A stretch of 64,000 bases of DNA from Malassezia furfur (lineage: Eukaryota), in assembly GCA_052055015.1 (NCBI GenBank), contig JBQJIT010000011.1; one strand, written 5' to 3'. Every line of letters begins with the position of its first letter. The stretch's first letter is position 1. The notes beneath the pieces were generated by a model. It was given only the letters and a program-made list of their open reading frames with translations. It was not told the DNA's origin and did not search any database. The position numbers and the translations under genes were made by a program. Positions 13,262 through 57,128 of this stretch are shown one piece after another.

Positions 13262-16200
13262 CTAGTCGAGTCCGTCTTGCGTCACGAGTGCAATCATCGC
13301 GCGTACCACCTGCTGGTTCGCGGGCGTGTACAGCGCGTGAGCGTCCTCGACACCCTGCTCGAGCGTCAGGCTGAGCAGCTGGCGCAGCTGGCGGCACAGA
13401 ATGCCGATCCGTGCACTCGCTTTCATCTTGATCCACGCTTCGGGGCCGGCGTTGCCGGACGTGGCGATCGTCAGGCCGCCGTGCTCGTGATCGACGTAGA
13501 GCGCGCCGCCAAACAACAGCAAGCCATACAGGGGCGCTTCGGTTGCATCGCGCAGATAGGTGCGATGCGTCGTGTCGTTGGCGCTCTTCCGACACACCGC
13601 GACGTAGTTCGACTTGAACTGAGTCGCGTGGAACAACATCGAGCTGGGGTGCAGGAAAACGCGACCGTCGTGCTCGTCGATGTAGTGCACTTCGCGCGCA
13701 ACGGCCTCTTTGCGTACCGCGCCCGACGACGACGCATTGTACTTGGCCGCAGGCTGGTCGACGCGCACCACCGACGGCCACAGCGATGCAACAAGCAGCG
13801 CGCGTAGCAGGTTCGTGTTGGTACTCTGCGTGTCGAGCATGTGCGTGCAATTTGCCTTGGGCCACTGCGCCCCCTCGGCGCGCCACGCCTGTACATAGGC
13901 ACGATCCACAATGCCCAGCTCCTCGAGACTGCGCAGAATGGTCGTGCGCGTCATGTCGACGTCTTGCAGTGCCGCAAAAGACAAACCGTGCTGGGTGAGT
14001 GACGCAACGTACCGTCTCGCACCACGCCTTGACTTCACGCAGCGGCTGTCGGTCGCGGCGCATGCCCAGGTACGTAGCATACAGGTGCGCATCCGTCAGC
14101 AGATCACTGTTGCCCAGTACATAAGCGGCGCGTGCCTTCGCCGCCTCCTCGTCGCGCTGTGCGGCGGCCGCGACAATCGAGCGGCTGGCCAGCAGCGCGA
14201 CAATGTGCAGCAGCGGCTCCATGCATCCAAACAGGCTGCCGAGTACCAGCATCTTGCCTTCGCGAACATCGAGCGGAAGATTGGCCTGCGGTGAGTCACG
14301 GAACGTACCAAGTGCTGTCCCAGCGGCGTGAGCGGCGCCGCGTACCCTTCGCCGTCCTGAATCGCGCCAGCCAGGACGAGCTTGCGGTGCGTCGCCGCCA
14401 GGGCATCCATCGAGGGCGGATCGATGGCGCGCTCCAAGAATGCCTGCACGTCGCCGTGTGGCTGAATCGACTTTACCTGCAGCACCACGCCCTCGAGGGG
14501 CGTGCGCTGCATCTCGGGTACCGATTGCGCCGCCTGCACATGCTTTTCCACGCCGCGGGAGTACAGTTTGAAACACTCGCCGGCCATGGTACGACCCGCG
14601 CGACCCGCACGCTGCTTGCACGCCGCACGCGACGCCCATGTCTCCTGCAGACGCGTGACACCGGCCATAGCGTCGTACTGCGCCTCGCGCACGCGGCCCG
14701 TGTCGACCACATAGCAAATTTCGGGGATGGTAATCGACGTCTCGGCCACGTTGGTCGACACAACAATCTTGCGCTGGTTGCGCGCGACCGGTTGGAAGAC
14801 GCGCCGCTGCTCGCTTGGCGCCAGGTTGGCATGCAGCGGAAGAATTACGGCGCCGTCCAGCTGCAGCGACGCAATCGCATCCATCGCGCGACGGATTTCA
14901 CCCACACCGGGGCAGAACACCAGAATCGCGGCGCGGCCATGGAGTGTACCCGTAAAGTCGACCTTTTCGGCGCGTTGCGCGGCCAGTGCCACGGTGCGGG
15001 CGAGGAATTCGTAGTCGATGCGCGATGACGACACCAGCTGCCGCACACTTGGCACGAGCGCCTCTGGGATGCTGGTCGCGTCAAACAACCGGTCGACCTT
15101 GTCGTTGGGCGTCGTGTGAGGCCGTGCGCTTTGGAAGTTGGACAGGCACACAACGTCCTCGAGATAGTGCTCTTGCACAGGGAAGGTGCGCCCGGGAATG
15201 AACATGTACGGTGCGCCGCCAAAGTATTCGATAAACGTCTCGGGGTTGATCGTCGCACTCATCAGCACGACACGCAGCTTGGGGTTCTTTTTGAGCACAT
15301 CACGCAGTAGCAACAGCAAAAAGTCTGAGTCGGTACTCCGCTCGTGTACCTCGTCAACAATCACATGTGATACGCTCTCCAGCGCGGGATCGCTGCCTGT
15401 TGCAAGACGACGAAGCAGCACACCGGTTGTCGAAAAGAGGATCCTGCAGGCAGACGACGCACGCCGCTCACCGCGGATCGCGTAACCGACATTCGCACCC
15501 GCTTCGACATCACGGTCCAGTGACTCGCCACGCTCGGCGGCGACCCGCGCTGCAACCCCCATGGCTGACACACGCCGCGGCTGGGTCACGACAATGCTGC
15601 ATTCACTGCCCCGACCTTGCTCAATGGCGTCGTCCAGCAGGAATTGGGGTACCTGCGTCGTCTTACCGCAACCCGTCTCACCGGCAATGAGCACCACACG
15701 GCTCGAATGCACCGCATCGAGCAGCTTACGCCGTGCGGCATACGCAGGAAGTGACTCGCGGACCGGGCCGATGCTTTCTTGGTATTTGAGCGAGGCGTGC
15801 AGCGACGACAGACGCTCTTGCAGCGCCGCGTCCACTTCGGCATCGCGCTGCAAAGCACGCATGCGCCGCACAGTACTGGGCTTGCTCTTGCGCGTCGAAG
15901 GAGCTTGCGACGGCGCAGGGGTTGGCTCCGCAGTGGGACCCGGCGGTGATTCCACCAAGTACTCCATCACCTCGTCCAGGGCGGGTGGCTCGTGCAGCAT
16001 GTCGGGGAGTACAGTGCGCAGTTCTTCCCAGAGCGCAAACAGCACACCTTCGCCACTCTGGTGGATGGCATAGATTTCACTGGACTTCTCGGCATCAAAC
16101 AGGCATTGCATGGCATGCCGCGTCAGGGCCAGACGTAAAAAGGCGGGCAAGGTCGTGCCCGTGACATAGATTGAAGGCGGGGCCGAGCTGCCTGCAAGGT

Positions 16201-17644
16201 ACGACGATACGTCATGGTCAACAAATCGCAACACCACGGGCGCCCCATCGTGCTTGCCTAGTTCGAGCTCGTAGTCACTGGAGGTGATCCGCTCACGGTC
16301 GGGCAGAGGGCGCATTTCGTCCACGAGCGCCTCCAGCACCGTGCGCTCGTCCGCACGGCGCTGCACCGCATCGCTGCTAGCGTCGAGGATTTCCGCTTCC
16401 CAGGCAGGCGCATCGACCAACCGGCGTAGCAACACGTCCAAAGCTGCGCCCTCGCGCCGCGCCAAACTCCACTCGGGGCGCTTTGCTCGTACGTACGCCA
16501 GGGCCTCGGCGGCGGCGCGCTGCGGAAAGCCAGCTTGGCGAACCAGTTTCTCAAGCGTCCAGCGATCCACGAGGCTGTCCTGATCGCCTCCCTTTGCTGC
16601 GCTGGTGACAAACGATTCAGCGGATGCAGAGGGCCGCAGAGCGGGGGGCAGATCCTGCTCGGGGGTATACAGAACAAGGTATTCAATAGCTGCCTCGCGG
16701 TCGGGCTGTGCGAGGATCGATGCCAACAGAGGATGCGCGCGGCGCAGGTTGGCCATCGCGGTCGTGTCCTGGGCCTTGGCGCGCGCCTCTTTCAACCAGG
16801 CGAGCACGCGACGAATGTAGCCCGGGCGCACGCCGAGTTTCGCCAGCTCACGCTCTAGCGCCACCGTGTCGAGCGGCGGTGTTTCCACAGAGACTTGGGA
16901 TACAGCCCCTGCAAGATCGTCGTCGCGGACCTCGTCCATGCGTGCGCGGATGGTCGCTTCCACAAGCTCGCGGAGTGCAGGCGACATGCGTACCTCCAAG
17001 GCACGCTGCCATGCCTTGCTCATGGGTCGCAGCGACGGGTCATTTCGCTGTGCCTCGCGGACCTCGCGCTCCTTTTTGCGTGCCTCGCGCTCGGCATCGC
17101 GTTTCTGGAGAGCGTCAAAGGGATCCGGCTCCCATTTCCAGCTGTCACTTGCAGGCGCTTCTGCTTTTACCTTTTCCAGATCAAGCCAGTACTCGCGAGG
17201 CCCAGGGGGAAGCATGCGATGCATACTCAAATGATTGTACAGGCGAAACAGGACGTAGGTAGCCGCCCAGTGCTTGGCCTCCAGCGCCGAGGCACACGAC
17301 AGTCGCGCCCCCTCCTCGGAAGGCTCCATCCGTAGGGTATGTGGGTTTGATTTGTCCTGCTTGTTCTCCTTTCGCAGGGTGATCACGCATGAATACCCGT
17401 TCTTGTGATGTCGAGGGCTCACTTCCGGCTTCTCGAAACCAGGCATTTTTTGGATCTTCTCGTACATCAGGTTCAGCGGCGTTTTCGAACCAGGGGGAAA
17501 GAGCTGCGCGGTTCCGTCTTCGCGCACGGCCGTCTTTGGGGGTGGCTTGGGTCCACCTCCCTTCACCCAGTCGGGTAGCGGTGCGGCCTTGGACGACGTC
17601 GCGCCGCTCGACTTGATTGCCGCGCTGCTCTTCTTACGCGCCAT
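13262..17644 (-). CDS. DEAH-box RNA helicase, YLR419W/DHX57-like (dsRBD-like N-terminus, RWD, helicase, HA2/OB)
   Basis: GETGCGKTTQ, DEVHER, MSAT, TNVAETSITI, QRAGRAGR. Introns 14286-14308 (23 nt) and 13991-14012 (22 nt) restore GQHL|ANLPLDVREGKML and AWCET|HGLSFAAL. Confidence 0.9.
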
Positions 17645-17674
17645 GGTGAATCGGGAGGATCGGGCTACTCCACA

Positions 17675-20164: not shown

Positions 20165-20193
20165 AACACACGGAGGTTGGGAGGATGGATTAG

Positions 20194-22554
20194 TCAGCTA
20201 TGATCGACCTCGCCAGAGAAGATCCGTGCGAGTGTTGGATTCGCCGCCTGATGGCTGGTCTCAGTGACCTCGAATAGGGCTTGGTCCGAATGCTTTTGTG
20301 TACCGGTCCCTGATTGTGCACCTTCCGTGGACTGCCAGCCAAAAGTTCGGGCATATGCCTCGCCACTGCGATCCAGCAACCGCTCCAGATCAGACGGGCC
20401 AATTAGAGGCTCGTCGTCGTCCCCCGCCTGGACATCTACCTTCGTAGTCGCCAGCGCCAGATCACCACTCTCTTCCGTCATTTTATTGTCAGCAATCTCG
20501 GAGTGTGTGATGGGGTTCCGGAACTGGCCCTTTTTGATCACCACGGATTCTAGGACACGCTTGGCTTTGGCCTTCTTGAGAATCTCTTGCTCAACTGTGT
20601 CTGAGGCGACCAAGCGGAACACTAGGACAGGCTGTGTGAGGTACTCTTGTACAAACTTTGTCTTGTCCAATACGATGGACACGGTCCTGTGCCTGTAAGT
20701 CCATTTGGGGATTCCAGTCACTGTCGAAGAAAATGACTGTATCCGCACCAACCAAGTTGATCCCAAGGCCACTTGCTCGGGTGCTGAGCAAAAATACGGC
20801 ATGTTCCTTGGAAAATGGAGTGTTGTTGAATTGGGAAATCTGATCGGCGCGGTCGGTTTGTGAAGTAGATCCATCGATGCGATACGGACTCCATTTTTTC
20901 ACGTCTGCATCAGAGGAGCTAAACTCACCCTTGGCCCACAGCTCGAGAATGTCGAGCATGGTGGTGAACTGGGTGAGAAGGTTTGTACATACTTGCGAGA
21001 AAATCAGGACACGGTGGCCTTGTTCCAAAAGCGCGTCCAACATCTGGTCCAGCATGCGCAACTTTCCGCTTGCACGGACCATGGCGGAATCCACGCGCAA
21101 TTGATCTGTATCTCCAACGACCGGCCAGTCAAGCAAATAGGGATGGCAACAGATTTTTCGAAGCTGCATCATGGCATTGTCAAGTCTCATGTTGCGCACG
21201 GCCCGTTCTGTTGTTAGCAATAGGACGTACCAGCTTCACGAAGCTGTTCCTGCTTCTTTTGTACCTGGCTCGAAGTTCGTTTCCGTGTCCGTGATGGGTG
21301 TTCGTCTCTCGGTTGGTCGCGCATGGCGACCAACTGTTCCATGTCGATCCCGGCCTTGTGCGCTATAAGCCAGTCCCGAAATGTGCCATTGATGACCTGG
21401 TTGTACATCTCCGCTTGCTCATGCGAAAGCGGCGCATACAAAAGGTATTCCTTTTTTGGAGGCAAGTCTTGCTCAACTTCCGACTTGACGCGTCGAAGCA
21501 AAAAAGGCTTCAAGATGCCGTGGAGCTGCTGCACTACACGCCGAGCTGTCTCCGTGCTCCACGTCGAGAAGGAGCTGGTTGCCGACTGTACTTCTCCTGC
21601 GTCGTCCTCGGCTGCACCAAAATTGAACCTGGGTCAGGAATATCACACACCATTGCTCAAAAGTTGCAAGGTCGTCGAAAATGTCGGGCAGGACAAAATT
21701 CAGCAAGGACCAAAGTTCAGCAAGGTTGTTCTGGGTGAGTATTCTGCGTACATGAAGCGGAGTCCCGGTGAGGATAAGTCGGTTGCCTGTTTTGAATTGC
21801 TTGAGTTCACGTAGGAGTCTGCGTAAGAGATACTGTAACGTACCTGCAGTTCAGGTTTTTCAGGCGATGCCCTTCATCCACCACAATAAACTTCCAGGGG
21901 AGGCGGGAGAGGAACTGCCGGTCGCGAATTACGATCTCGTACGATGTAATGACCACAGATACTTTTTCTGGATCAACTGTTTTTTGAAGTGAAACACGCT
22001 CGCTTTTGGTGCCGTGGTACAGCAGCGTCGGGACGCCAGGCGTGAATCTAAATGAGCGCACCACGTACTTTGCGAACTCGCTGTGCCAGTTAGACATCGT
22101 TGAGAGGGGAGCAACAATCAAGAACACGCCTTTGATGCCTTTCTCATAGAGATGCGCGAGAAATGCAATGGTTTGTAGCGTCTTGCTGGGTCAGACGTCA
22201 AAAGCACGCACCCAAGACCCATTTCGTCCGCGAGGATCCCATTTAGCCCATTCTCGTACAGGCTACTAAGCCAAATCAGACCATCCATCTGGTATGGCTT
22301 AAGTTCCGTGCCAGTTATAAGTCTTGGCTGTTCCCGCCGCGCGATGGCTGCGAGCGTGCCGAGCTCGGCCTCGGTCCGTGCGCGCTTCGCTTTGGGCTTT
22401 GCATCGGTATCGGTCTCCTGCGTGGACTGTGGGCGCTGCAGTTTCTCGCCCATGATGCGCGAGTAGATTCCAGAGCGCTGCAAAAGAAATTCGAGCTTGC
22501 GCATGCGCTGCATAAGCCAAAAGGCCGTACCTCTTCCTCTTCGGTCTCGCTCAT
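20194..22554 (-). CDS. IRC5: SNF2-family chromatin remodeller, IRC5/HELLS(LSH)/DDM1 type; about 708 aa, 11 exons
   Basis: [82 protein letters not shown]. Ten introns: 22508-22530, 22186-22211, 22048-22068, 21819-21843, 21731-21751, 21629-21650, 21208-21230, 20969-20992, 20905-20928, 20632-20656. Exon phases sum to 2127 nt. Confidence 0.92.
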
Positions 22555-23712: not shown

Positions 23713-26194
23713 ATGAAGTTCTACATCGATGATCTGCCGGTGCTCTTCCCATACCCCAGGATTTATCCTGAGCAATACTCGTACATGGTCGACCTGAAAC
23801 GGACCTTGGATGTAAAAGGGCATTGTGTCTTGGAGATGCCTTCGGGCACCGGCAAAACGGTGTCCCTACTCAGCCTCATCGTGAGCTACCAAAAAGTACG
23901 TGGTTTGCCTTATACAGTTTTATCCGGAGCAACGCAAACTGATCTACTGTTCGCGAACCGTGCCCGAGATCGAAAAGGCGCTAGCGGAGCTGAAGCGGCT
24001 CATGGCATACCGTGCGAAATACAACAAGGCGGCCAACATGGTCAATGCGGATGGCAACAGCATGGAGGTGGACGGTGAGGATGAGGGAAAGATGGAAGAG
24101 ATCCTGGCGCTGGGGTTGAGTAGCCGCAAGAACATGTGTATTCATCCAGTGGTGAGCCAACAGCGCAAGGGCAAAGTGGTGGACGCCATGTGCCGCGACA
24201 TGACCAGTGCATGGGCGTGCAAAAAAGGACGCGAGGACCCAGGCAGTGTGACGCTGTGTGACTACCACGAGGAGCTCGGCAAACTGGAACCAGGTCACCT
24301 CGTCCCGCCAGGGGTGTGGACGATCGAGGAGGTGAAGGAATACGGTCGTGAACGGGGCGTTTGCCCCTACTTTGCGATACGACGCATGATGCCTTTCTGC
24401 GACATTATCATTTACAGTTTCCATTACCTGCTCGACCCCAAGGTTGCCGACCAAGTGTCCAAGGAGATGAGCAAAGACGCCATTGTGGTGTTTGATGAGG
24501 CGCATAACATCGACAATGTGTGCATCGAGTCGCTCAGTATCGACCTGACGCGCCCGACACTCGACAATGCGTATCGTTGCATCAACCAGCTTGCCGAGAA
24601 AGTCGACGAGGTCAAGAAAGCCGACTCGTCCAAGCTACAGGACGAGTATACGCGCCTCGTCGAGGGGCTGCAGCAGCAGAGCGATGACCGCGAGGCAGAA
24701 ACGTTCCTGGCGAACCCAGTACTGCCCACCGATCTGCTTCAGGAGGCAGTGCCGGGCAACATTCGCCGCGCCGAGCACTTCCTCGCGTTTCTGCGGCGGT
24801 TCGTCGAGTATCTCAAGACGCGAATGCGTGTGCTGCATGTGGTCGCTGAAACCCCTGCGAGTTTCCTGCAGCACCTAAAGGAGATCACATTTATCGAGCG
24901 CAAACCGCTGCGGTTCTGTGCCGAGCGCCTGCGTATGCTGGTGCAGACGCTCGAGTTAACACGTATTGACGAGTACAGCTCGCTGCAGACGGTGGCGTTC
25001 TTTGCGACGCTAGTGTCCACGTACGACAAGGGCTTCTTGTTGATTCTCGAGCCATTCGAGACGGAGAATGCCACCGTGCCGAACCCCATCTTCCATTTTA
25101 CGTGCCTGGACGCGAGCTTGGCGATTGCACCTGTCTTTGAGCGGTTTAGCAGCGTGATCATCACGAGCGGAACCATTTCGCCGCTGGACATGTACCCCAA
25201 GATGCTCAAGTTCGACACAGTGTGCCAGGAAAGTTATACCATGACGCTAACGCGGCAATGTTTCCTGCCGCTTGTCGTGACGCGTGGCAGCGACCAGGTG
25301 GCGATCAGTTCACGATTCGAAGTGCGCAACGACCCCTCAGTGGTGCGCAACTACGGCAACATCTTGATCGAGTACGCAAAGTGTGTTCCGGATGGTGTCG
25401 TGGCCTTTTTCCCCTCGTATCTGTACATGGAGAGCATTGTTGCCGCTTGGCACGATATGGGCATTCTCGACGAAGTGTGGAAGCACAAGCTGGTATTTGT
25501 CGAGACGCCCGACGCGCCCGAGACGAGCATCGCGCTCGAAAACTTCCGGCGTGCCTGTGACAATGGGCGTGGCGCGATCCTCCTGTCAGTCGCACGAGGC
25601 AAGGTGTCGGAAGGAATCGATTTTGACCACAACTACGGGCGCGCGGTGATTATGTTTGGTGTGCCCTACCAGTACACTGAGTCGCGTATTCTCAAGGCGC
25701 GTCTGGAATTTTTGCGCGACAACTTCCGCATCAAAGAGAACGACTTTTTGACCTTCGATGCGATGCGGCATGCGGCGCAGTGCGTTGGACGTGTGCTACG
25801 TGGCAAGTCGGACTACGGACTGATGGTGTTTGCCGACAAACGGTTCGCACGCGCGGATAAGCGCGCCAAGCTGCCAAAGTGGATTGCACAGTATATCCAG
25901 CCCGTGTGCAACAACCTGTCCATGGATATGGCGATCGTCGAGAGCAAGCGGTTCATGCGTTCGATGGGCCAGCCGTACCCTGCGGGCAAGAACGGGATTA
26001 GTCTATGGGATGTGGCGGACATTGAGCACCGCCAGGAAAAGGAGCGCATTGCACTCGAGCGTCTCATGCAAGAGGACATGGATGAGTGGGTATCTAAGCA
26101 CCAGGACGCGGCTCCTGGCGACGAGGCCGGCCTCGCCGATGAGTTCGACCAGGCGTTTGGCTCCGGTGCCGAGCTCGCGGAGCTTGCGGCGTAG
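23713..26194 (+). CDS. RAD3: TFIIH/NER 5'-3' DNA helicase XPD
   Basis: [31 protein letters not shown], Fe-S cysteines, [18 protein letters not shown]. Intron 23896-23917 (22 nt). Confidence 0.97.
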
Positions 26195-29692: not shown

Positions 29693-30831
29693 CTACAGGA
29701 AAAAGACCGACGCCCACCAGCTCAGCACGCCCGCGACCAGCGCACCCGTCGTGCCGGCCGCGAGCGACACTTGCTCGCTTTGTGTAAAGGGCAGATAGGT
29801 GCGCACGAGATGCACCGTCTCGTATTGTAGCACCCGCAGCCAGTGCATCACCCGGTCCATCCACGCGAACTTCGGCAGCGGCGGGAACAAGCGGCGCGGC
29901 GCAGCCGGCGGGGACACGGGCTCGGTGGGCGCCGATGCGCCGCCCCCGCCGCCCTTCGCCGCCGCGCCCGAGGCCGCCGACACGCCGCTCTTCGAGCCAG
30001 TCAGCCGGCCCTCGAGACGCGCCAGGTGCTCGTCGACGGACGAGACCGTCGCCTGCATCCTCTCATACGCCTCCTCTTCGCTCGCCTTAACGCGCTCCTC
30101 TAGCGTACGGGCCAGCTTGCGCCGCTTGAACGGCTCAACCAGTAGCAACGCCAGCATAAAGATCAACACTGCATCAGTAGCGACACGCACCGTTCAATGC
30201 ACCCATGCCCAAGCTCACGTACGTGCTTACGCTGCGCACGCGATCGCTCCATAGGTGCTCCTCATGATACCGCCGCATGACGCTGCGAATCAGGTCGTCA
30301 AACCCGCGCTCCATGCGGTCTTCGGCTTGCTCGTATTCTTGCTCACTGCGCTCCTCCGCCTTGGCGTACGAATGCTCCGAATGCAACAATTTGGTATATT
30401 CGATCAGATCGGAATCGTTCCACGACGGCTTGCGTGTGAGCAGATCGCTGATCTTGCGCTGCGCCGTGGACCGTTCGGCCACGGCGTTGACGTAGGCCGC
30501 CTTGGCCTCATTTTTTTGCTCCTGCAGCTCCTTGAGACGTGCGGCTGGGTAAGACGGGACACCTACATTCTTGTTCCACCTGTTCCTTGTGATGGAGGAT
30601 GGCCTCATAGCCAGACACCACATTCCATCGCTTTGAAAGATCGTTAAATCGCTCCATGGCAATCGGCCGCTTCTGCTCGATCCAGTTGGTGCAGTGCGTC
30701 TTGATCGATTTGAGCAAATCAGACCGCGGAGTCGCCGTCGAATAGACGCGCAGGTGGGAAGCATGCAAAAAAGGAACCGCCTGGCATCGCACACGCAGCG
30801 AGGTCGCTGCCCGCGACGCACTGAGCGTCAT
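29693..30831 (-). CDS. SHE9: Mitochondrial inner membrane protein She9/Mdm33
   Basis: Presequence-like start MTLSASRAATSLRVR; SGYEAI, QRKISDLLTRKPSW, RYHEEHLWSDRVRSVST, VEPFKRRKL. Introns 30545-30566 and 30169-30190 (22 nt each). Confidence 0.9.
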
Positions 30832-30934: not shown

Positions 30935-31343
30935 ATGTCGCAGGCGATCCCCCTCACGAACTCGTCGCAGATTGCGAGCCGCGCAAACCAGGAAGTACGC
31001 ATCATCGGTAAAGTGCAGAAGGTAAGTGTACAACACCCACACAGGTTTCTGGCGGTGTGCTCCTCTTGGAAGCCTCGGACAATGGCACCGTGGAAGTAAA
31101 GTTGCAACTGGTATGCACAACGCGCTTGATCTACTTACACAAAGGACGAAACACCCACGTCGGAATACGTCGAGGTCATCGGTCGTGTGTCACGGACGGG
31201 CGACTCGATCACGCAGCACGCGCTGCTCCCGCTGGGTGACAACCTGGGTACGTCTTTTGCCACGGCTCATGACAGATCTTTCCCTCGTTGAGCAGCTCGT
31301 GAAGCTCACACCGAAATTCCCTAGTTTGTTCTCGGAGCAGTAG
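30935..31343 (+). CDS. RFA3: Replication protein A small subunit (RPA14/Ssb3)
   Basis: Spliced product MSQAIPLTNSSQIASRANQEVRIIGKVQK|VSGGVLLLEASDNGTVEVKLQL|DETPTSEYVEVIGRV...LGDNL|DLSLVEQLVKL..KFPSLF. Introns 31022-31044, 31111-31144, 31248-31275. Confidence 0.85.
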
Positions 31344-32247: not shown

Positions 32248-34259
32248 ATGGCGACGGAAACGGTGATTGAGATTCCTACCCGTCTGAATGGGAGCGATGC
32301 GACTAGGCCAAAGCCTCATTTCGGCGTTGGTGACTACGAACCTCACTATGAGCGCTCAATGACCGACAGCGAGAACTTCTGGCGCGAGGAAGCCAAGAAT
32401 CACCTGACTTGGACGGTGCCCTTCAATACGGTTCAATACGGTGGTTTCAACTATGGCGACATGGCTTGGTTCCCGGACGGCCAGCTGAATGCTTCCTACA
32501 ATGCTGTGGACCGCTGGGCGATGGAACGGCCAAAGGACACGGCCATTATTTGGGAAGCCGACGAGCCCGGCCACGACGTGTCGATCTCTTGGGAAGAGCT
32601 GCTGTGCCGCGTGTGTCTCGCCGCCGGTGCCCTGCGCACGCTTGGTGTGCGCAAGGGCGACATTGTGATTATCTACCTGCCGATGATCCCCGAGGCCGCC
32701 ATTGCGATGCTCGCCTGTGCGCGCATTGGTGCGCTCCACTCGGTCGTGTTTGCAGGTTTCTCCTCGGACTCGCTGCGTGACCGTGTGCAAGACAGCAATG
32801 CACGTGTTGTGATCACTGCGGATGAGGGGCGCCGCGGCGGACGAACGATTGCGACGAAGCGGATCGTCGACGCGGCACTCAAGGAGTGCCCGAAAGTGGA
32901 GCATGTGCTGGTGGTGAAGCGCACGCGTACGGAGGACGTGCCGTGGGTGGAAGGCCGTGACCAGTGGTACGAGGATGCGGTGCTGCGTGAGCGGACCTAC
33001 ATCCCGCCTGTGCCGATGAACAGCGAGGACCCGCTCTTTGTCCTTTACACTTCGGGCTCGACGGGCAAGCCCAAGGGCATTGTGCATACGACCGCGGGCT
33101 ACATCCTCGGCGCAGCCATGACGGTGAAGCATGTGTTTGATGTGCACCCTAACGATCGTTTTGGCTGCATGGCCGACATCGGCTGGATTACGGGCCATAC
33201 GTACATTGTCTACGGTCCGCTTGTGAACGGCACCACGACGCTGATCTTTGAGTCGACGCCAACTTACCCAACTCCCTCGCGCTACTGGGACGTGGTCGAC
33301 CGTCATCGTCTGACGCAATTCTACACTGCGCCGACGTCGATCCGCTTGCTGCGTCGGATGGGGAAGGAGCACGTGGAGAAGTACGATTTGAGCTCGCTCC
33401 GTACGCTGGGCTCAGTCGGTGAGCCGATCAATCCAGAGGCGTGGCAGTGGTACAACGAAAATGTGGGTCGTGGCCACTGTGCAATCGTGGATACCTATTG
33501 GATGACCGAGAGTGGCTCACACATGGTGTCATCACTGCCTGGTGCAATCCGTGCCAAGCCCGGCAGTGCCTCCTTGCCCTTCTGGGGCGTGGAGCCCGCG
33601 ATTCTCGATCCGCACACCGGCCATGAAGTTGAAGGCGAAGCCGAGGGTGCGCTGTGTATCAAGCGTCCTTTCCCGTCGATGGCTCGCACCATTTTGGGTG
33701 ACCATGATCGTTTCATGAAGACCTACCTGAAAGCATACCCTGGCTACTTCTTCACCGGCGACAGCGCCGTGCGCGACAAAGACGGCTATATTTGGATCAA
33801 GGGACGCGTGGACGACGTGATCAATGTCTCGGGTCACCGTATGAGCACGGCCGAGATCGAGTCGGCGCTCGTCGGCCACCCGGGCGTGGCAGAGACCGCG
33901 GTGGTCGGTGCGCCGGATGAGATGACCGGCCAGTCGATCACGGCGTTTGTGGCGCTCAAGCCCGACTACGTACACCCTGAGTCTGAAGAGGCGCTGCTCA
34001 AAGAACTGACCATTCAAGTGCGTCGCGCCATTGGACCATTTGCAACGCCCAAGCGTATCATCTGTGTCAAGGACCTGCCTAAGACGCGCAGCGGCAAGAT
34101 TGTTCGCCGGGTGCTGCGCAAGATCGTCTGTGGTGAGGCCGACCAGCTCGGCGACCTGTCCACCGTGTCTGACCCCGAGGTGGTAACCGACATCATTGTA
34201 CGTATCGCACAAACACACAACACTGACCGCAGAACAAGTTCGAAGAGTTGAACAAGTAG
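32248..34259 (+). CDS. ACS1: Acetyl-CoA synthetase
   Basis: [56 protein letters not shown]. Terminal intron 34198-34232 (35 nt) gives ...[12 protein letters not shown]. Confidence 0.96.
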
Positions 34260-34313: not shown

Positions 34314-34676
34314 TTATTCCTTTTCCCAACGCTCGAACGCCTTTTCGAGGTCAAAGTTGGGGTCATCCGGGTTCGTCACTGCTGCCGGGTTAGCTGATAC
34401 TCCATCCAAAATACGTACCGTCGACCACGGGTGCAATCTTCTGCTGTGCCGCAGCCTTGAGCTTGGCGTACTCTTCCTTCGCCTTCTTAATCAGCTCGTC
34501 CTTTTGCTTCTGCTCGTGCTGCAGGGCCTTGGTGTCCCAGTCCTTCTGAAGCGACCGGCGGTGAAGAATACCGTAACCGATACCACCGATCAAAGCAGAG
34601 TAACGGACGACCTGTGGTTAGTATGAGGCACCTCCGTGCCACGTACATTGACGAGGGGAGTGGGCGACATCGACAT
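34314..34676 (-). CDS. TIM11: Mitochondrial ATP synthase subunit e
   Basis: MSMSPTPLVN|VVRYSALIGGIGYGILH...DPNFDLEK. Introns 34612-34646 (35 nt) and 34382-34418 (37 nt). Confidence 0.9.
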
Positions 34677-40902: not shown

Positions 40903-41428
<526 letters not shown>

Positions 41429-43470: not shown

Positions 43471-43479
43471 GGCTCTTTC

Positions 43480-46400: not shown

Positions 46401-46910
46401 GGCCAGGGTCCTCGCTGCTCCCGCTGATCGTGTGCGTCTTGCCACATCCCGTCGCCTGCGTCAGTGGCACATACGTACACCATACGCAAACACACTTGCG
46501 TTGAACCCACTCAGCAGCCCGGTGAGCATCGGCTCGACCGTGCCGCGGTACACCTCCTGCTGCGTCGTCGTCGGGGGAAACACGCGGTCAAACGCGTACC
46601 GCACGTCGCGCGCTCGCCGACCGTTGCCGTGGATGTGCATATGCGTCGTTGCTTGTTGCTTCTGGCCCCGGATCTGTGCGGTGGGTTCCGCGGGATCAAA
46701 CACCAGCACACGGTCGTCCACGGGCGACAGAATGTTGCGGATGTAGTTAGTGCGCATCGCCGCAATCGCATTCTGCGCCTTGCTGGGCGATCCCGCCAGC
46801 CCTCCATCCCCCTGGAATGGCTGCGAGGTGTCTACTGGCGCAAGCAGCGACACCTCCCGCGCATTCAGGGGCCGAATTCGCACCGCGACCTGGATTGACG
46901 ACTCGGTCAT
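43480..46910 (-). CDS. Kinesin-8 (Kip3) motor and stalk fused in frame to the COPI alpha-subunit C-terminal domain; about 1135 aa
   Basis: MTESSIQVAVRIRP, YAFDRVF, FAYG|ATGCGKTHT (intron 46456-46478), SSRSHAVL, IIDLAGSERA, HIPYRNSKLTRLLKFSLGGNCKT, ETHNTLKYANQAKNI. From about 44757: WPL...ENYFD, HWLRNSPVAADLVAAGAF, CREYLIG, ELAALFTH, FARRLLE, VCAGS, KYLPEF.GSLC, EVGKLATGL. Confidence 0.85.
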
Positions 46911-46953: not shown

Positions 46954-47752
46954 TCACGTGACAAAGCGCACCAGGGGCACGCCTGCCGGCACGCGCGCGG
47001 CGTAGCGCGCGTATTCTTTGCCAAAGAAGCGGTGGAGGAGGTACTCTTCGTCTGCGTGAGCACGGCACGTACGTCGAATGCGCTGCGCAAAGAAGCGCGA
47101 GAGTGTACAAATAAACAGCAGTGTAGACACGGGGTTGCCCAGCAAAATCTGCGTCCCGACCGCCCAGTAGAAGAAGCCCGCGTACGAGGGGTGTCGCGCC
47201 AGCCGGTATACGCCGTGCGTCACCAGCACATGGTCGTCGCGCTTCGCGCTTGCGACCGTGTGGCTAAAGTTGGTGGATGCGTGCACCATCGCCAAAGACC
47301 GTATCATCTGCCCAAGCACGAGTAGCAGCACGCCGAGCACCTGCAGCGCACGGACCTGCTTCCAGTACGGCACGAATGCGCCTTCCACGAGGAACTCGAG
47401 CAGTCCAAATGCATGCGCGGCCGCATACTCGATGCCGTTTTGGAGTAGGAAGGCTGGGTGAGCACGCGCTATACGTACAGTCAGCTTGCAGGTGCGTCGC
47501 ATTCCAGTACGCAGTCACGAGAAACTCCAGCAAATGGAACAAGGTCCACGCAGCGAGGTAGAAATGCAGAGGAGGAGCCATGAGCAATGATTTCCATCCC
47601 TGCGTATTCCGTGCCCAGTCGACCAACAGCGCGACGGCCTGCGGCGCGCACAGACCAAATCCCACACCGAGCACGGCGGCGGTGAGCGCAACGTTGCCGA
47701 CAGGAGCAGCGACTTCGGCAGGTATCCGGATGGGGTGTGCGACGCGCAGCAT
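46954..47752 (-). CDS. STE14: Isoprenylcysteine carboxyl methyltransferase
   Basis: FHLLEF..TA, GQMIRSLAM...NFSH, HVLVTHGVY..ARHPSYAGFFYW, RI.|HEE..L..FFG.EY..Y. Introns 47454-47478 (25 nt) and 47052-47072 (21 nt). Confidence 0.95.
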
Positions 47753-50588: not shown

Positions 50589-52358
50589 CTACTTTCGGTA
50601 CTTCAATCGCTTGAAGTTGACTGGGTTAGTACACGTTGACGTACAATGTAGCTGCAGTACGCCGCGCTCAAAGGTGCAGCGGAATCCACGGCGGTGCGAG
50701 AATTCCCAAGCGCGATCCACAATGCGGAACGCAATGTCCTCATACGGCGGACCGGCGCTGAAGCGGAGGAGCACGGTATCGTCGGAATCCTCGCGCAGGA
50801 TTTTGTAGGTGGGAGGACGCGAAGAGTCGATCAGGTCGGGGTAGAAGATGTTGAACTTGTAGCCTTGCACCACCTTAGGCGGAGGATTTTCCGAGTCATA
50901 GTGGGTCTGGTTGTACCGATTCCATTCGTAGCCGGTATGCACGCGGTTGAAGTAGCGTGGCTTGCGTGGACGATACTTGTCGGCCCACTGGTATATCGGA
51001 TGCGACGGGAGCTGCACGTCCTGGTTGAACGTCTCCTCGGTAGCATCCACTTCGCGCTCGGCTTCCATACGGAATAGCTTGTCCTCGACGCTCTCGTTCT
51101 TATCCTCTTGCTTGGTCTGCGCCTGTGCCAACCGTGGTATAAATGCTGTGCGGAGCACACTGCGGCGCGCAGCCAGTAGAGCGGCCCACTGCGAAGCAAG
51201 CGTGACAATAGGCAGCTTCCGTTGGTCGTACGACAGGTTTTGCTCCTTTTCCGTGGGTGGTTCCATGTCTTCCGACCATGTGTCTTGCTCTTCCTTGGCG
51301 GGCCTGACCTCCTCGTTCACTTCGTGCGAAATCTCTTGCTGGTGCTGCTGCGCTTCGGCCCGTTGGCGCTGCTGGAGCTGTGCGCTCCGCTGCTTCTGTA
51401 CGAGTTCATGTACGTCGCGGAGCTTGGCAATACTGCGCCAAACAACAATCCGCCGCAGCAGTCCTTCCCAGTATTCCACATCCAAAGGCTCGCCAGAGCG
51501 CAACTTGGCGCGGATCTGGCGCTGGAGCTCAAGCAGTTCGTCAGCCGATTTGGAGGAAAGCATCGCATCCGTTTCGGCAAGGATGGACGCATCCACATGG
51601 GTACCTTCGGCATCGCCACGCACGGCACGTTGCTTGTCGTCGCAGACAATCAAGGCGTTGCGCCAGTATTCAACAGTGTCTGCGTCGCGCTCCAGCTTCA
51701 CAAACGACTGGATGTCACCATGGAGTTCTTCGAGCTCGGACGGCAACAGTTTCTCAATCACGTCGGGCGGCGCACGCAGGTCTGCATCAAGACCCGCCTC
51801 GTCGTCGTCGTCAGCAATCCGCTGCCGGTCCGGATTCGCCCACATCCAATTGAGCACCAACATATCGATCGGTTTGGCGCGGTTCTCACGCGTGCGGATT
51901 TTGGCGCGTAGCTTCATCTGCTCAAGTTGGAACTGGTCCTCCTTTGCCACCCATTCGGTCATCACGGCTGCGTCGCTGTTGCGCGCAGCATATGCGCGAT
52001 TTTCTTCGCGGGCTTTTCGCTCACGTTCTCTTTGTATGCGCCGTGCATTGAGCTGTTCAACTTCGCGCAGAGCTTCAGCACGTCGCTCTGCATTATAACG
52101 CTCTTTTTCTTCGGGCGAAATGCCGGCGTCGTGCTCTTGTGCCTCCTTTTTGTGCCAGTGAAATTTGTCATCGAGACCCGAGGGAGGCAGGTTGTCGGCG
52201 TGTGCCGCCCCAGACGACCCGCTGGAGTGGAAGCGCGACAGTCCTGTGGCCCTAGCTTCTCCTGTCTCGTTGCGTGCGCGTTTTGCATACCGATCGTCCC
52301 CACTTTCCACCGCATCGTGCCGCACGTCCCAACGAGACGCCCTGCCGAGGTCGCCCAT
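50589..52358 (-). CDS. Cactin (spliceosome-associated splicing factor)
   Basis: WVAKEDQFQLEQ...RAKIRTRENRAKPID, DVEYWE, WADKYRPRKPRYFNRVHTGYEWNRYNQTHYD.ENPPPKVVQGYKFNIFYPDL, AGPPYEDIAF. In-frame intron 50621-50644 restores LQLH|FNFKR. Confidence 0.95.
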   Translation of the reverse strand: MGDLGRASRWDVRHDAVESGDDRYAKRARNETGEARATGLSRFHSSGSSGAAHADNLPPSGLDDKFHWHKKEAQEHDAGISPEEKERYNAERRAEALREVEQLNARRIQRERERKAREENRAYAARNSDAAVMTEWVAKEDQFQLEQMKLRAKIRTRENRAKPIDMLVLNWMWANPDRQRIADDDDEAGLDADLRAPPDVIEKLLPSELEELHGDIQSFVKLERDADTVEYWRNALIVCDDKQRAVRGDAEGTHVDASILAETDAMLSSKSADELLELQRQIRAKLRSGEPLDVEYWEGLLRRIVVWRSIAKLRDVHELVQKQRSAQLQQRQRAEAQQHQQEISHEVNEEVRPAKEEQDTWSEDMEPPTEKEQNLSYDQRKLPIVTLASQWAALLAARRSVLRTAFIPRLAQAQTKQEDKNESVEDKLFRMEAEREVDATEETFNQDVQLPSHPIYQWADKYRPRKPRYFNRVHTGYEWNRYNQTHYDSENPPPKVVQGYKFNIFYPDLIDSSRPPTYKILREDSDDTVLLRFSAGPPYEDIAFRIVDRAWEFSHRRGFRCTFERGVLQLHCTSTCTNPVNFKRLKYRK

Positions 52359-52428: not shown

Positions 52429-53269
52429 ATGTCGCGAGGACCGGCACCCGACGCGTCTGCTGCATCCCCTCGGGATCTGCTGCAGTCGAGTGTGGGGAAA
52501 CCGCTGCGCCTAATTGTCTCGTACGACAGCTTCTCGGCGCCGAACTATGACGCTCATGAGAGTACGGCTGTGGGTCGGCTGTGGGCGTACGATCAGGGGT
52601 TGGACGTCGTGGTACTTGAGAACGGCAAGACGGGTGCGCTGCCCGCCGCACTGCGTCGTGCCGCTGCCTCTGCTTCGTACGACGTGCAGGGTCGCAGTGC
52701 ACCGCATGCCACGACTGGATTCAAGTTGGTGCAAGGCGCGCGCATTGTGCATGTGGACATTCTCACCGACGAAGAATATGCTAGCAGTCACAGTAACCGC
52801 ACGCTTTCTACTGTCGCCAACGTTCCCGTCGCTGCGATGGAGGCGCGTGATGCGGCCGCGACGAAGCGGTCCATGGAGCGCGCCCAGCAGATCGGTCCCG
52901 AAGAAGCGGGCGAGTTGGGCCAGGCGATCTTTGATGCGCTCAGCAAAACGTACGTGCTTTGCTGACCTCAGACTTCCCTGCAGATGGCACGAGTCGCATA
53001 TCATCGTCTTGGACGAAGTTGTGATTGTATGTCTACCAAGCTCACGCAGTCTGGCCCTGCGTACGATACCAATTCTACCTACGTCCCGAACTTGTCGCGC
53101 GAACAAATTGACAAATTGCTTGAGGGCGTGGAGCTGTCGCCAGAGGAGACGCCGAAAGTGGAACGCGCCCAGGCCAAGGCCCATACGTGGCAGCGCGTTA
53201 CGAAAGTGGTATGTATAAGCCGCGCTCACGCAGCTCGATGGTGTGCGCCGTAAGCTTGTAGCGCCGTAG
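52429..53269 (+). CDS. LSM12: Lsm12-like protein (Sm fold plus anticodon-binding domain)
   Basis: GRLWAYD...VVL, GQAIFDALSKT|LPCRW...IIVLDEVVI|..PAY, RVTKV|LDG.R. Introns 52950-52971, 53027-53049, 53209-53233. Confidence 0.82.
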
Positions 53270-53331
53270 TGAAATAGCGCGTGGAGCCACGTGGTTCTTG
53301 CCCAGGAATTGTCGCCTCCGACCTTGTCGCC

Positions 53332-53672
53332 ATGAGCTCGGTTCTGTCGAAAGCGTTCCCGTCTGCGGTGAAGGAGATCCGTCTGCACCTTTCGCCTGTT
53401 GGCGCAGGGAGTGCGGGTGCTCGGTATGTTCCGCGAACTAACCACAGGAAATTCCTCCAGAACAACTATCAGCTGATCAAGAAGAACAACCCGAACCTGC
53501 CGTTCCTTGTGCGTGAGGCAAAGGACACGCCGGCGCGCCTGTTCATGCGCCTTGGTACGTGAAACGATTTGAGGATTTGCTAACAACAGAGCGTGGCGCG
53601 GAGCGTTCTGCCGAGATCGACAGCCTTGAGCCGAATGCAATCGAGAAGAAGATTAAGGAGTTCTTGTCGTAA
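53332..53672 (+). CDS. Complex I accessory subunit NDUFA2/CI-B8 (L51/S25/CI-B8 fold)
   Basis: KEIRLHL...GSAGAR|KFL..NY..IKKNNPNLPFLVREA...PARL. Introns 53424-53447 (24 nt) and 53555-53589 (35 nt). Confidence 0.88.
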
Positions 53673-54009: not shown

Positions 54010-55398
54010 ATGAAGATCCTGGCGCGTCATATTGAACGCGATGGCAGCGGGAGTGTGTCGGTCACACCCGAATGCGAGTACGTGTACAGCTGACACAGCG
54101 AGGATCTCTACCACTTGTACAACCTAATCCAGCCAGAGGACTTGGTGCGCGCATCGACGGTACGCCGTGTGACGTCTGAATCGTCCACGGGCTCGACGGA
54201 GTCGCACCGGGTACGGATGCAGCTGACCATCTCTGTGTCGAAGCTCGACTTTGAGATGGACGGTGGCATCGGCATGTCGCTTGGAGAGAATCCCGCGGCA
54301 CCGCTTGGGTCTGTCACTGCTCCAGGTAGCGCCAGCGAAGCTAGTTCTGCCGCGTCGACGCCGATGGGTTCCATGGTCTTGGGCGAGGCGGGCACCACCG
54401 CGCCGCCACCGACGCTAAGCGGTGCGACGCAGGGGCATCCTACGCTGCACATTTCCGGCCGTGTAGCGGAGGAGAATCCCAACGTGCGCACGGGCTCCTT
54501 CCATACATTGGACATTGAGATCCAGCGCAAACTCACCATTACCAAGGAGCATTGGGACCAGCACCATCTCGAGGTGCTCGAGGAGAGCGGCGAGGCTGGG
54601 AACACGGCCGAGGTCGGTGCCGTCATCCTCGGCGAAGGCAAGGCGATTGTGTGCCTGATGACCAACAACATGACGCTCGTGCAACAGCGCATCCAAGTGT
54701 CGATGCCGCGCAAGCGCGCGGGTGCCGGCTACGGTGCCGCGGCGAGTGGCGCGGCGAAGACGTCTGAACGCTTCAACGACCAGGTCTACAATGCCGTGGT
54801 CAAGCTCCTGTCGATGCCGTCGATGCGTGTGGTGCTCTTGGCCTCGCCCGGCTTCTGGCGCGAGACGATGTACGACTTTTTGCTGGCGGAAGCGACGCGC
54901 CGGAACGACAAGATCCTGATGGGCTCTGAGGGAAAACGGAAGCTGCTCAAGGTCCACACTGCTACCACGCACGTCCACTCCCTGATGGACGTGCTCAAGT
55001 CACCCGAAGTTATGGCACAGCTTCAAGATACCAAGTTCACCCGGGAGAACCAGGTGCTCGACAAATTCCTTCGCACTCTGTCCAGCGATGACCTGCGCGC
55101 ATGGTATGGCGAGCGCGCAATTGTGCTCGCGGCGTCGCGTGGCGCAATTGGAACGCTACTGCTCTCCGATGCAATGCTGCGCAGCACACACCCGATGCGC
55201 CGGAAGCAGTGGGTAGATCTGTGCGACCAGGTCAAAAGCTTTGGCGGTTCGGTGGTTATTTTCAGCTCGTTGCACGAGAGCGGGCGCCAGCTGAACGGAC
55301 TGGGTGGCGTTGCTGCGCTGCTCACCTACCCACTGGACCTGGACCTGGTCGAGGAGGAGGAAGCCGAAATGGCGCAAGATAGTGCAGCGCAGTCGTAA
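54010..55398 (+). CDS. DOM34: Pelota/Dom34 ribosome rescue factor
   Basis: MKILARHIERDGSGSV..TPEC|DEDLYHLYNLI, GSFHTLDIE, LASPGF, RAWYG, FSSLHESGRQL..LGGVAALL.YP. The 21-nt intron 54078-54098 contains an in-frame TGA. Confidence 0.96.
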
Positions 55399-55407
55399 TC
55401 TATCGAT

Positions 55408-56266
55408 CTAGAACCCATCCTCGGTTGCCGGTGTCATGCCGCGAAACAAGGGCGTAGGCTGTCGACTGGCGTTGCGCATCGACTCACCGCGTCCGTACTG
55501 CCGCTGGGAGCGCTGAGACGGTGCCGGTGCCTCGAAGGCGACCTTGGCGTGCTCGCTGAGTTGGCGCTGTTCGCGCCGCGTCGCGTCGTCCTCGACTTTG
55601 AATAGGTCCGGATTCGCCGCAATTGCGTCTGCGGTCGGCTCCAAGACGCAAACGAGCTCTTTGCCAAACACGGAGAAGCCTGCGTAGGATACGCGCACTT
55701 TGGGCTTCACCTTGACGTCTTCGTCCGAGGCGGGCGACGGTGCGCGCACGGACCCCTCGTCGTCGCTCGCGGGTATAAAGAGAGGTCCCTCGTCGTCGAT
55801 TGGCTCCTCCTTGACAGCTGGCTCGGATGGCTGCGTGCGTGCGGGAATATGTGCATTGGCAGCCGTGTCGTCGTCCAGCGGCACGGTCCCTGAAGGAAAC
55901 TGGAGCGATTTGGACTGGGTTAGGCTGGCGACCTACTTTGAGGAGCACGCTGTGGGACTGGTCTGATGGGCGGAAGTAGAAGAGCAGTTTGAATCCATCT
56001 GTCCCAGAGGGGGATGCTCCCGCCTCACACACCTCGGGCTCGGCGGCATGCGAGGGATCCTGCAGCGCCTGGGCCAAGAGCGTGCGCATGCTGTGTCAGC
56101 ACAACACGTACCGTGGCCGGAGCAACTCGTACACCGCACGGTGCCACATCTCTGGCTTCTCGTTCAGCCATCGAACATGGCGCTGGTCGAGGTATAGCAC
56201 CGTGATGAGGATGGTATGTGCCGAGATGCGCAAGTAGCTCACGTTGCGCACCGAAAACGGCTCCAT
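55408..56266 (-). CDS. Uncharacterised fungal protein (possible SLX4IP/UPF0492-like)
   Basis: Three exons joined by introns 56091-56111 (21 nt, in-frame stop) and 55915-55936 (22 nt). An alternative upstream ATG lies at 56299. Confidence 0.7.
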
Positions 56267-56297
56267 TGTGGAGGTTGTCTGTGCGGAGTGAACAAGC

Positions 56298-57128
56298 ATG
56301 GCAACGTGGGTGCGGCGTGCTGTGCTGACGACGCCTCGGCTGTGCCGTGGCTATGCGTCGGCGCCGCAGCTACCCCGCTTCTACCGATACTGGATAGATG
56401 TGCATGGTCAGCTGTTTCTCTATGACACGGTTCCCAAGAACCTCACTTCGTGCTTCAAGTCCGTGCCTTTTCTCAATTTCTTCTTTGCGCGTGTGCGGCC
56501 GACAGGCACACAGGTACGTGGCAAGCCCGTGGCGGTAGACGCGCCTCACTGGGTCGACGATGCATCAGAGTTGCGCTCCGTGCTGCGGCTCGGGGACGGG
56601 GCCGAGGCGGAGAAGCAGGGCTGGCAGGACCTGTGGGACCGGCTGGGTGCCGAGGAGGTTGCGTGGGTGAGCAAGTGTCAGGGCGAGTGGAATGTGATCC
56701 ATGCCGTTGACACGCCGATCGTGTACCGTGCCTTGTCGAACGAAGGTGCGTATGCGCGGCTGACGCAGGGGTCCTATCGTGGGCGGGCGACTACGAGACG
56801 CCGTTCGACCCCAGCGCGCTGCTGGTGCATCCGTACGTGCGCGCGACTCACACACAGGGAAACGGGCTACTTGTACCATCCGTCGCCTGCCTGTCCGCTG
56901 CGGCGCGCGCCGCCGGACCCGTATGGCAAGTATAGTCTGGTGTCGTCCTATGTGGTGCTGCAGCGCCTCGCGAGTGGGCTGGACATCGACTTGGAGCGTA
57001 CGGATGTGCTGCCGAATGGGCGCCCGTGCGCCGGTACGCTGACGTGGCACGGGCGCACGTACGAGATGGGCGTGCTTGATCCAGCTACAGACCTGACGTA
57101 TCCCCCCCGCCCCGACGTAGCGCACTGA
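56298..57128 (+). CDS. DUF4505/UPF0598 (C8orf82-like) protein, probably mitochondrial
   Basis: YRYWIDVHGQLFLYD..PKNLTSCFKS..FLNFFF.R, SKCQGEWN....DTPIVY, PFDPSALL..PETGYLYHP after removing introns 56746-56768 and 56833-56857. Confidence 0.85.
   Translation: MATWVRRAVLTTPRLCRGYASAPQLPRFYRYWIDVHGQLFLYDTVPKNLTSCFKSVPFLNFFFARVRPTGTQVRGKPVAVDAPHWVDDASELRSVLRLGDGAEAEKQGWQDLWDRLGAEEVAWVSKCQGEWNVIHAVDTPIVYRALSNEGAYARLTQGSYRGRATTRRRSTPARCWCIRTCARLTHRETGYLYHPSPACPLRRAPPDPYGKYSLVSSYVVLQRLASGLDIDLERTDVLPNGRPCAGTLTWHGRTYEMGVLDPATDLTYPPRPDVAH

Follow-up and report, generated by a model that had tools for sequence, protein, structure and literature searches.

Ultra-short spliceosomal introns in a 64-kb stretch of the Malassezia furfur genome

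The DNA considered here is a stretch of 64,000 nucleotides (nt) from contig JBQJIT010000011.1 of the fungus Malassezia furfur (GenBank assembly GCA_052055015.1), referred to below as the window. Nineteen of its genes, among them those encoding the SNF2 helicase IRC5/LSH, cactin and DOM34/pelota, are interrupted by a total of 40 GT-AG introns (Table 1), which we mapped by combining a motif scan with restoration of the reading frame. Five of these introns are 21 nt long, eight 22, eight 23, five 24 and six 25 nt, three measure 35 nt and one each 26, 28, 30, 34 and 37 nt (median 23, mean 24.9). Thus 33 of them fall between 21 and 26 nt, and 34 are shorter than 30 nt, a proportion that describes this one window. 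The mapping was made independently of a first-pass annotation of the same DNA and yet arrived at identical numbers (40 introns, 33 of 21–26 nt, none above 37 nt), including the same five 21-nt introns (54078 on the plus strand; 21731, 22048, 47052 and 56091 on the minus strand). It consisted of a relaxed scan, the splicing of 39 candidates and the reading of 19 more stretches in all three frames; one candidate was discarded, and reading contributed two introns, both in RPA14. Weak in-frame introns may have escaped this procedure, and none of the gene models that were read contains a frame break requiring a longer intron. Both ends of the window are intron-poor because they are occupied by a few very long single-exon frames, not because of a regional effect.

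Table 1. Positions, sizes and junction evidence of the 40 introns. P numbers denote homologous proteins; L001, L006 and L007 are metagenome loci of M. restricta, the M. sympodialis/M. equina cluster and M. globosa, respectively.
Position	Strand	Length (nt)	Gene	Junction evidence and remarks
13991..14012	-	22	DHX29-like helicase	restores 1445-aa frame; without junction-level homologue
14286..14308	-	23	DHX29-like helicase	frame restored; HA2_C exon next; without junction-level homologue
20632..20656	-	25	IRC5/LSH SNF2 helicase	atypical donor GTTTGT; gap-free in homologues
20905..20928	-	24	IRC5	gap-free junction
20969..20992	-	24	IRC5	gap-free junction
21208..21230	-	23	IRC5	gap-free in P0121, P0256, P0132, P0152; unspliced gene calls stop within
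21629..21650	-	22	IRC5	gap-free junction
21731..21751	-	21	IRC5	in frame, stop-free; gap-free in 9/10 homologues; KAI3626939.1 has 7 extra residues
21819..21843	-	25	IRC5	gap-free junction
22048..22068	-	21	IRC5	in frame, stop-free; gap-free in 9/10 homologues
22186..22211	-	26	IRC5	gap-free in 10/10
22508..22530	-	23	IRC5	gap-free in P0256, P0267, P0152, P0137
23421..23444	-	24	gene of unknown function	in-frame stop; M. caprae protein aligns gap-free across
23896..23917	+	22	RAD3/XPD	exon 1 = RAD3 residues 1-60/61; exon 2 from 62-63
30169..30190	-	22	SHE9	Pfam She9 position 160 = exon end and next exon start
30545..30566	-	22	SHE9	frame restoration
31022..31044	+	23	RPA14 (RFA3)	branch CCCAC; Pfam Rep_fac-A_3 1-29 stops at exon end
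31111..31144	+	34	RPA14	AAG acceptor; Pfam positions agree
31248..31275	+	28	RPA14	frame restoration
34198..34232	+	35	acetyl-CoA synthetase	frame only
34382..34418	-	37	ATP synthase subunit e	frame only; tandem acceptor would give 40 nt
34612..34646	-	35	ATP synthase subunit e	Pfam ATP-synt_E restarts at position 12 past 10-codon exon
35144..35173	+	30	NAC beta (EGD1)	in frame, stop-free; NAC domain 10 residues surplus
35983..36004	-	22	CBP20	exons = human CBP20 21-86 and 88-150
36225..36247	-	23	CBP20	frame; following exon begins at CBP20 residue 21
41118..41142	+	25	lumazine synthase RIB4	Pfam DMRL_synthase divided between two frames
46456..46478	-	23	kinesin-8 motor	zero gap in M. restricta orthologue; nested donor 4 nt inside would give 19 nt
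47052..47072	-	21	STE14 (ICMT)	in frame, stop-free; zero gap in M. restricta
47454..47478	-	25	STE14	zero gap in M. restricta
50621..50644	-	24	cactin	in frame, stop-free; L001 23 nt, L007 52 nt, L006 none
52950..52971	+	22	LSM12-like	orthologues 25, 23, 40 nt
53027..53049	+	23	LSM12-like	orthologues 26, 23, 54 nt
53209..53233	+	25	LSM12-like	orthologues 35, 25, 33 nt
53424..53447	+	24	L51/S25/CI-B8 domain protein	orthologues 42, 25, 44 nt
53555..53589	+	35	L51/S25/CI-B8 domain protein	orthologues 27, 73, 50 nt
54078..54098	+	21	DOM34/pelota	in-frame TGA; spliced protein 455/455 = WFD46657.1
55915..55936	-	22	conserved gene of unknown function (55408-56270)	orthologues 23, 23, 56 nt
56091..56111	-	21	gene 55408-56270	in-frame stop; L001, L007 none; L006 23 nt
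56746..56768	+	23	DUF4505 gene	L001 none, L006 23 nt, L007 77 nt; nested donor 4 nt inside would give 19 nt
56833..56857	+	25	DUF4505 gene	L001, L007 none; L006 23 nt

Might units of this size simply reflect chance motifs? The two strands together contain 70 GTAYGT sites, 30 of which have a branch motif and a YAG within 200 nt downstream, and the sizes of these 30 units cluster sharply: 22 measure 21–26 nt and five 27–37 nt, with single units of 19, 54 and 170 nt. In 60 local third-order Markov shuffles the 21–26-nt class held 0.18 units on average and two at most, versus the 22 observed. If retained, 32 of the 40 introns would cause a frame shift or a stop. Lengths divisible by three occur in 11 introns, eight of which are also stop-free, and these numbers are too few to judge a depletion, which is not clear. 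In-frame stops lie within the DOM34 intron, as the first-pass annotation had pointed out for its TGA, and within those at 56091 and 23421, whereas the 21-nt introns at 21731, 22048 and 47052 are in frame and stop-free and draw their support from homology.

The splice signals are strong and compactly arranged. The donor hexamer is GTACGT in 22 and GTATGT in five of the 40 introns, with G at +5 throughout, T at +6 in 37 and C or T at +4 in most; a CTNAY branch motif is present in all but one, which has CCCAC; and the acceptor is CAG in 36, TAG in three and AAG in one. Over donor positions +3 to +6 this amounts to about 5.5 bits, uncorrected, which is an upper estimate because the introns were found by motifs. 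Intron G+C is about 52%, and the 59 bases between branch and YAG (20 C, 17 A, 15 G, 7 T) are devoid of a polypyrimidine tract. These base counts bear out the consensus proposed at first pass, namely GTACGT/GTATGT, CTNAY and YAG in the absence of such a tract. The predicted branch adenosine occupies intron position 16 (seven introns), 17 (nine), 18 (eight), 19 (four), 20 (four) or 21–29 (eight), so that 24 of 40 fall at positions 16–18 and none before 16. It lies 6–9 nt from the intron end, 6 nt in 27 cases, and the AG used is in all 40 introns the first one past it, while at least 6 bases separate donor hexamer and branch pentamer. The 21-nt minimum then corresponds to a branch adenosine at position 16 or later plus 6 nt to the end (16 + 6 - 1). 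Nested donors that would give 19–20 nt are skipped in three cases (46456, 56746 and one intron of metagenome locus L012), and at 30169 a weaker donor giving 22 nt is used in preference to a perfect GTACGT, which would give a 54-nt form. When competing donors were sought within 80 nt, six of the 40 introns were flagged, two of the flagged sites being donors of neighbouring introns. The skipped nested and alternative donors fit recognition of each intron as a compact unit near a length floor.

In all features examined the introns are of the major-spliceosome type. U12-type introns carry an RTATCCTT donor and a CCTTAAC branch; neither GTATCC nor ATATCC occurs among the 40 donor hexamers. Instead, GT-AG ends are combined with donors that follow a GTRAGT/GTAYGT-type consensus and, by motif, with a branch adenosine upstream of the acceptor. 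No small nuclear RNA (snRNA) was detected by Rfam in the window or in eight of 12 syntenic loci scanned.

Protein and DNA homologues locate 28 of the 40 junctions exactly, including those of all five 21-nt introns; these 28 comprise the ten of IRC5 (protein alignment), 14 placed by orthologous DNA, and those of RAD3, of CBP20 at 35983, of SHE9 at 30169 and of the intron at 23421. IRC5, with 720 residues and ten introns, is the most informative gene. In an alignment with ten homologues, M. furfur WFD46754.1 is gap-free at all ten junctions, and the junctions of both 21-nt introns are gap-free in nine of the ten, which reach as far as Ustilago, Rhizoctonia and Cryptococcus. A 699-residue protein from Logan (P0121) is identical to WFD46754.1 at 694 of 699 positions and gap-free at all nine junctions that it covers, two of which belong to 21-nt introns. 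Since its contig of 2152 nt is too short for the unspliced gene, which would need 2311 nt with the intron sizes of the window, and since other Logan and ENA calls run into introns and stop, P0121 most likely derives from a spliced transcript of the other M. furfur lineage, in which the position of 21731 also appears to hold a 21-nt intron, because an older model carries seven extra residues there. The cactin cluster, in which the spliced forms among 15 members are three NCBI models only, provides no transcript evidence.

The prediction that gene finders would mis-annotate such genes is borne out by public records. The M. furfur IRC5 model KAI3626939.1 deviates at five of the ten junctions, both 21-nt introns included, and cactin is represented in NCBI and UniRef by a 589-residue form in which the 24-nt intron is read through, beside spliced models of 581 residues. 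Among 15 named Malassezia DOM34 proteins whose starts were inspected, three deviate near the intron site, although the smallest deviation may be a strain difference. A related species (P0268/P0004) has seven extra residues at this site, a surplus consistent with a stop-free 21-nt intron read through by the gene caller. The practical consequence is that some public Malassezia protein records are wrong at such junctions. Two further public models, P0126 (M. caprae, 926 aa) and P0315 (1927 aa), fuse two neighbouring genes.

Twelve metagenome loci syntenic with window positions 45.6–63.8 kb allowed us to follow the introns within the genus. By their DOM34 clusters, L001–L004 and L008 belong to M. 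restricta, L005, L006, L010 and L012 to the M. sympodialis/M. equina cluster and L007 to M. globosa, whereas L009 forms a separate cluster and L011 is Tilletia-like. M. restricta has an intron at seven of 14 window positions compared (23–42 nt) and none at the other seven; the M. sympodialis cluster has one at ten of 11 covered positions, all of 23–25 nt except one of 73 nt; and M. globosa has one at nine of 11 covered positions, at 33–77 nt with a median of 50 nt versus 23 nt for the same nine in the window. The DOM34 site, for example, is uninterrupted in L001 and L011 and holds introns of 25 nt in L006 and 34 nt in L007. The earliest branch adenosine lies at position 17 in M. restricta (n = 6), 17 in the M. 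sympodialis cluster (n = 14) and 24 in M. globosa (n = 8), and the distance from branch to intron end is 6–9 nt in the window versus 9–17 nt in the M. globosa orthologues. With orthologous M. globosa introns of 33–77 nt, intron shrinkage thus comes in degrees among Malassezia species. The distance from branch to AG is not short everywhere: in the 73-nt intron that corresponds to 53555 in L006, the single CTAAC is remote from the acceptor. The M. restricta orthologue of gene 55408-56270 has two extra 23-nt introns at sites that M. globosa also interrupts, and differential intron loss appears, from such comparisons, to be frequent in the genus. An M20 peptidase gene, single-exon in the window, occurs as a tandem duplicate with introns of 23–26 nt in L005 (9800-12942) and L012 (5900-10269).

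Several candidates were rejected. The stretch 49907-49931 runs opposite a gene on the plus strand, and 32983-33000 (18 nt) likewise lies antisense, inside the frame of acetyl-CoA synthetase; 7818-7833 (16 nt) and 8855-8879 fall within a frame that continues without a stop for at least 3199 codons; the nested 19-nt alternatives at 46456 and 56750 were also discarded; and a 20-nt candidate in L005/L012 is better read as 24 nt, judging from the exon boundary of the tandem paralogue.

As to the setting, the DOM34 frame (54094-55398) gives Malassezia proteins as its first matches, and its 90% cluster contains M. furfur and M. brasiliensis records, in keeping with an origin of the window from the M. 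furfur complex. The window has a G+C content of 63.6%, which is about 0.74 at the left end, falls to 0.50–0.55 near IRC5 (20000-22000), the most intron-dense gene, and then rises again. The stop-free frame just mentioned (window 1-9600, minus strand) extends past the left end and, to judge from its motifs, may encode a midasin-like protein. The genes at 22598-23608 and 55408-56270, both on the minus strand, are conserved in Malassezia and gave no convincing Pfam match. Left of about 44.77 kb the encoded proteins are nearer to M. furfur CBS9595 (MRP51, 99.6% versus 96.2%), and right of it to CBS14141 (cactin, 99.8% versus 94.0%; DOM34, 100% versus 98.7%). The two strains stand for the parental lineages from which known hybrids arose (PMC9040865; here and below, articles given by accession are cited from portions of their text). 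Positions 1-44700 and 44800-64000 may be parts of a recombinant hybrid chromosome or of a chimeric assembly. Close to the join, near 44770, a minus-strand frame (43480-46909) fuses the kinesin-8 motor and a partial tail to a COPI alpha C-terminal domain, whereas the M. restricta kinesin is unfused; judged by the order of reference accessions, the genes flanking the join lie about 100 genes apart and in opposite order. This suggests that the join marks the breakpoint of an inversion or is a mis-join. Since tiny introns are present left and right of it, the intron finding is independent of the join.

How might a spliceosome handle introns of this size? In human extracts a donor-to-branch distance of 46 nt abolished splicing and the minimum was about 50 nt; the B complex needs some 52 nt to accommodate U6 and U2 helices of 17 and 14 nt, respectively, held 15 nm apart (PMC6692369). 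The predicted distance here is 16–29 nt. The suggestion made at first pass, that the donor lies too close to the branch for canonical simultaneous binding of U1 and U2, thus stands as far as the distance is concerned; the squeeze, however, would not be confined to U1/U2 binding but would extend to the later U6 and U2 helices. We envision that these are ordinary U2-type introns which, in the M. furfur lineage, have been reduced to near a physical floor, and that each is recognised as one compact unit by intron definition. In such a unit the branch point would set the acceptor, and therefore no pyrimidine tract would be used. Sixteen nt would presumably leave no room for both of the long helices, U6/donor and U2/branch, that form in the human B complex, so assembly would have to differ in geometry or in order: donor and branch might be held by short helices, or be engaged one after the other. 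The spliceosome itself would keep all five snRNAs and its core proteins, any change being limited to peripheral or branching factors. An altered geometry need not mean an altered parts list, because Stentor, which has all snRNAs and most proteins with changed branching factors (PMC9505925), and myxozoans, which retain U2 snRNA and both U2AF subunits (PMC13644364), keep largely canonical parts. That the introns are genuine U2-type introns we regard as virtually certain; for the scenario of largely canonical parts working in an altered geometry we would put the probability at roughly 0.6.

The evidence bears unequally on the alternatives. One might suppose that the introns are artefacts, that is chance motifs or assembly errors, or that they are removed by an endonuclease of the tRNA or IRE1 type. 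The apparent mosaic of two lineages with its odd gene join indeed hints at an imperfect assembly, yet introns lie on both sides of that join, three other species show at these positions GT-AG introns of differing sequence and length, or none, and 99% of M. sympodialis introns have RNA-sequencing support (PMC5389616), which leaves this notion barely credible. Somewhat less remote, though still improbable, is that real introns are spliced poorly, so that retention would be common and stop-free in-frame introns would lengthen proteins. The eight in-frame, stop-free introns and the short introns of microsporidia, with a median efficiency of about 25% (cited in PMC13644364), would suit this idea. 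It is opposed by the 32 introns whose retention would break frame or translation, by IRC5, whose ten introns are matched by a transcript-like contig spliced at nine of nine covered junctions, and by the intron-dense Bigelowiella natans nucleomorph, which splices more than 90% (PMC6009652).

A weightier alternative is that the introns are real but that in Malassezia major parts of the spliceosome have been lost or truncated, thereby permitting a 16-nt loop; U1 small nuclear ribonucleoprotein proteins, the SF3a/SF3b arms, the U2AF large subunit, Smu1/RED and other B-specific proteins would be the parts in question. The gap between 16 nt and the human minimum of about 50 nt speaks for it, as do the missing pyrimidine tract and the predominance of C or T at donor +4, a position at which U tracks the loss of METTL16 and SNRNP27K in yeasts (PMC10581693). 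However, cactin, with both Pfam domains complete, and CBP20, which aligns to human CBP20, look whole; congeners differ in intron length at shared positions, between about 23 and about 50 nt, which fits drift to a tolerated floor; and Stentor, with introns of 15–16 nt, keeps all snRNAs and most proteins. We therefore consider loss of major parts a possible but unlikely account. Conceivably, and as a similarly doubtful proposition, thousands of introns sit near a hard 16-nt donor-to-branch floor with strong motifs kept, and canonical A- and B-complex geometry is skipped because spliceosome parts have been lost or trimmed in a lineage-specific way that follows intron length across Malassezia, from about 23 nt in M. 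furfur to about 50 nt in M. globosa. If this were true, a culturable, transformable fungus would be available for dissecting the minimal-intron problem by comparison of close relatives. Several points weigh against the scenario of canonical parts in an altered geometry. Six introns are supported by frame restoration alone and six by approximate Pfam or PDB positions; discovery by motif inflates apparent signal strength, branch points were likewise assigned by motif, and the floor in length and branch position is based on 40 plus 28 introns. P0121 stems from the other M. furfur lineage, is 93.7% identical to the IRC5 of the window and owes its assignment as a transcript to the length of its contig. 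Finally, the human requirement for about 52 nt in the B complex may equally mean a real loss of parts; for the B. natans nucleomorph such a loss and a divergent splicing mechanism have been argued (PMC6009652).

The M. furfur introns belong to the known class of ultra-short spliceosomal introns, which for this genus is partly on record and apparently has not been studied mechanistically. The first-pass annotation had rightly called the trend not new. Introns of ciliates, nucleomorphs, microsporidia and myxozoans match or undercut this size, and for M. sympodialis 5350 curated introns with a mean of 30 base pairs and 99% RNA-sequencing support have been tabulated (Zhu et al., 2017, PMC5389616), the size being a table entry accompanied, in the available text, by no minimum, branch geometry or splicing mechanism. 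M. sympodialis resembles M. furfur in genus and in its cluster's orthologous introns of mostly 23–25 nt, and M. furfur appears slightly shorter (minimum 21 nt; branch at 16 versus 17). In the literature searched, mostly non-subscription papers, we found no paper on ultra-short introns or the spliceosome of Malassezia. A 2026 article names, in its list of exceptions below 30 nt, ciliates, microsporidia and dicyemids, not Malassezia (PMC13644364); text searches found the genus unmentioned in PMC6157073, PMC10158995, PMC10581693, PMC2483917 and the supplement of PMC10639083, and the word 'intron' absent from PMC10410736 and PMC9040865, while 'minimum intron' occurs once in the portion available of a paper on M. 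restricta (PMC6473144).

Compared with the U2 introns usual in basidiomycetes (Ustilago maydis, median 95 nt, table in PMC2483917; M. globosa, annotated mean 76–79 nt, PMC4634964; Cryptococcus, mean 63 nt, PMC8476143), those of M. furfur follow the same signal grammar with a CTRAY-like branch but are only about one quarter to one third as long. Encephalitozoon cuniculi and Trichomonas vaginalis have introns of about 25–36 nt in which donor and branch point are conserved (Irimia and Roy, 2008, PMC2483917), and T. vaginalis, with a fixed branch-to-AG distance, shares the lack of a pyrimidine tract; both organisms, however, contain very few introns, in contrast to the thousands in Malassezia. According to the same authors, intron-rich lineages with short introns have degenerate signals, and strong signals in short introns accompany intron paucity. 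With thousands of introns and strong motifs, Malassezia fits neither group neatly. Introns of the same or smaller size, numerous, bounded by GT-AG and posing the same steric puzzle, are found in Stentor (15–16 nt, PMC9505925), with a branch adenosine likewise 6 nt from the end, in Paramecium (20–34 nt, cited in PMC6009652), in the Bigelowiella nucleomorph (18–21 nt, PMC6009652) and in myxozoans and dicyemids (medians of 22–27 nt, PMC13644364). In ciliates, nucleomorph, myxozoans and dicyemids, though, the donor is reduced to GT(A) and the branch motif is weak or absent, whereas M. furfur keeps a six-base donor and CTNAY; what looks distinctive is the retention of strong donor and branch motifs in many tiny introns. 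How introns of about 20 nt are removed, when the human spliceosome needs about 50 nt, has been studied mostly in ciliates and parasites. To these Malassezia adds a culturable fungus, for which transformation and CRISPR appear in a preprint on M. furfur (bioRxiv 10.1101/638429, in part), and whose close relatives carry, at matching positions, introns that differ in length by a factor of about two.

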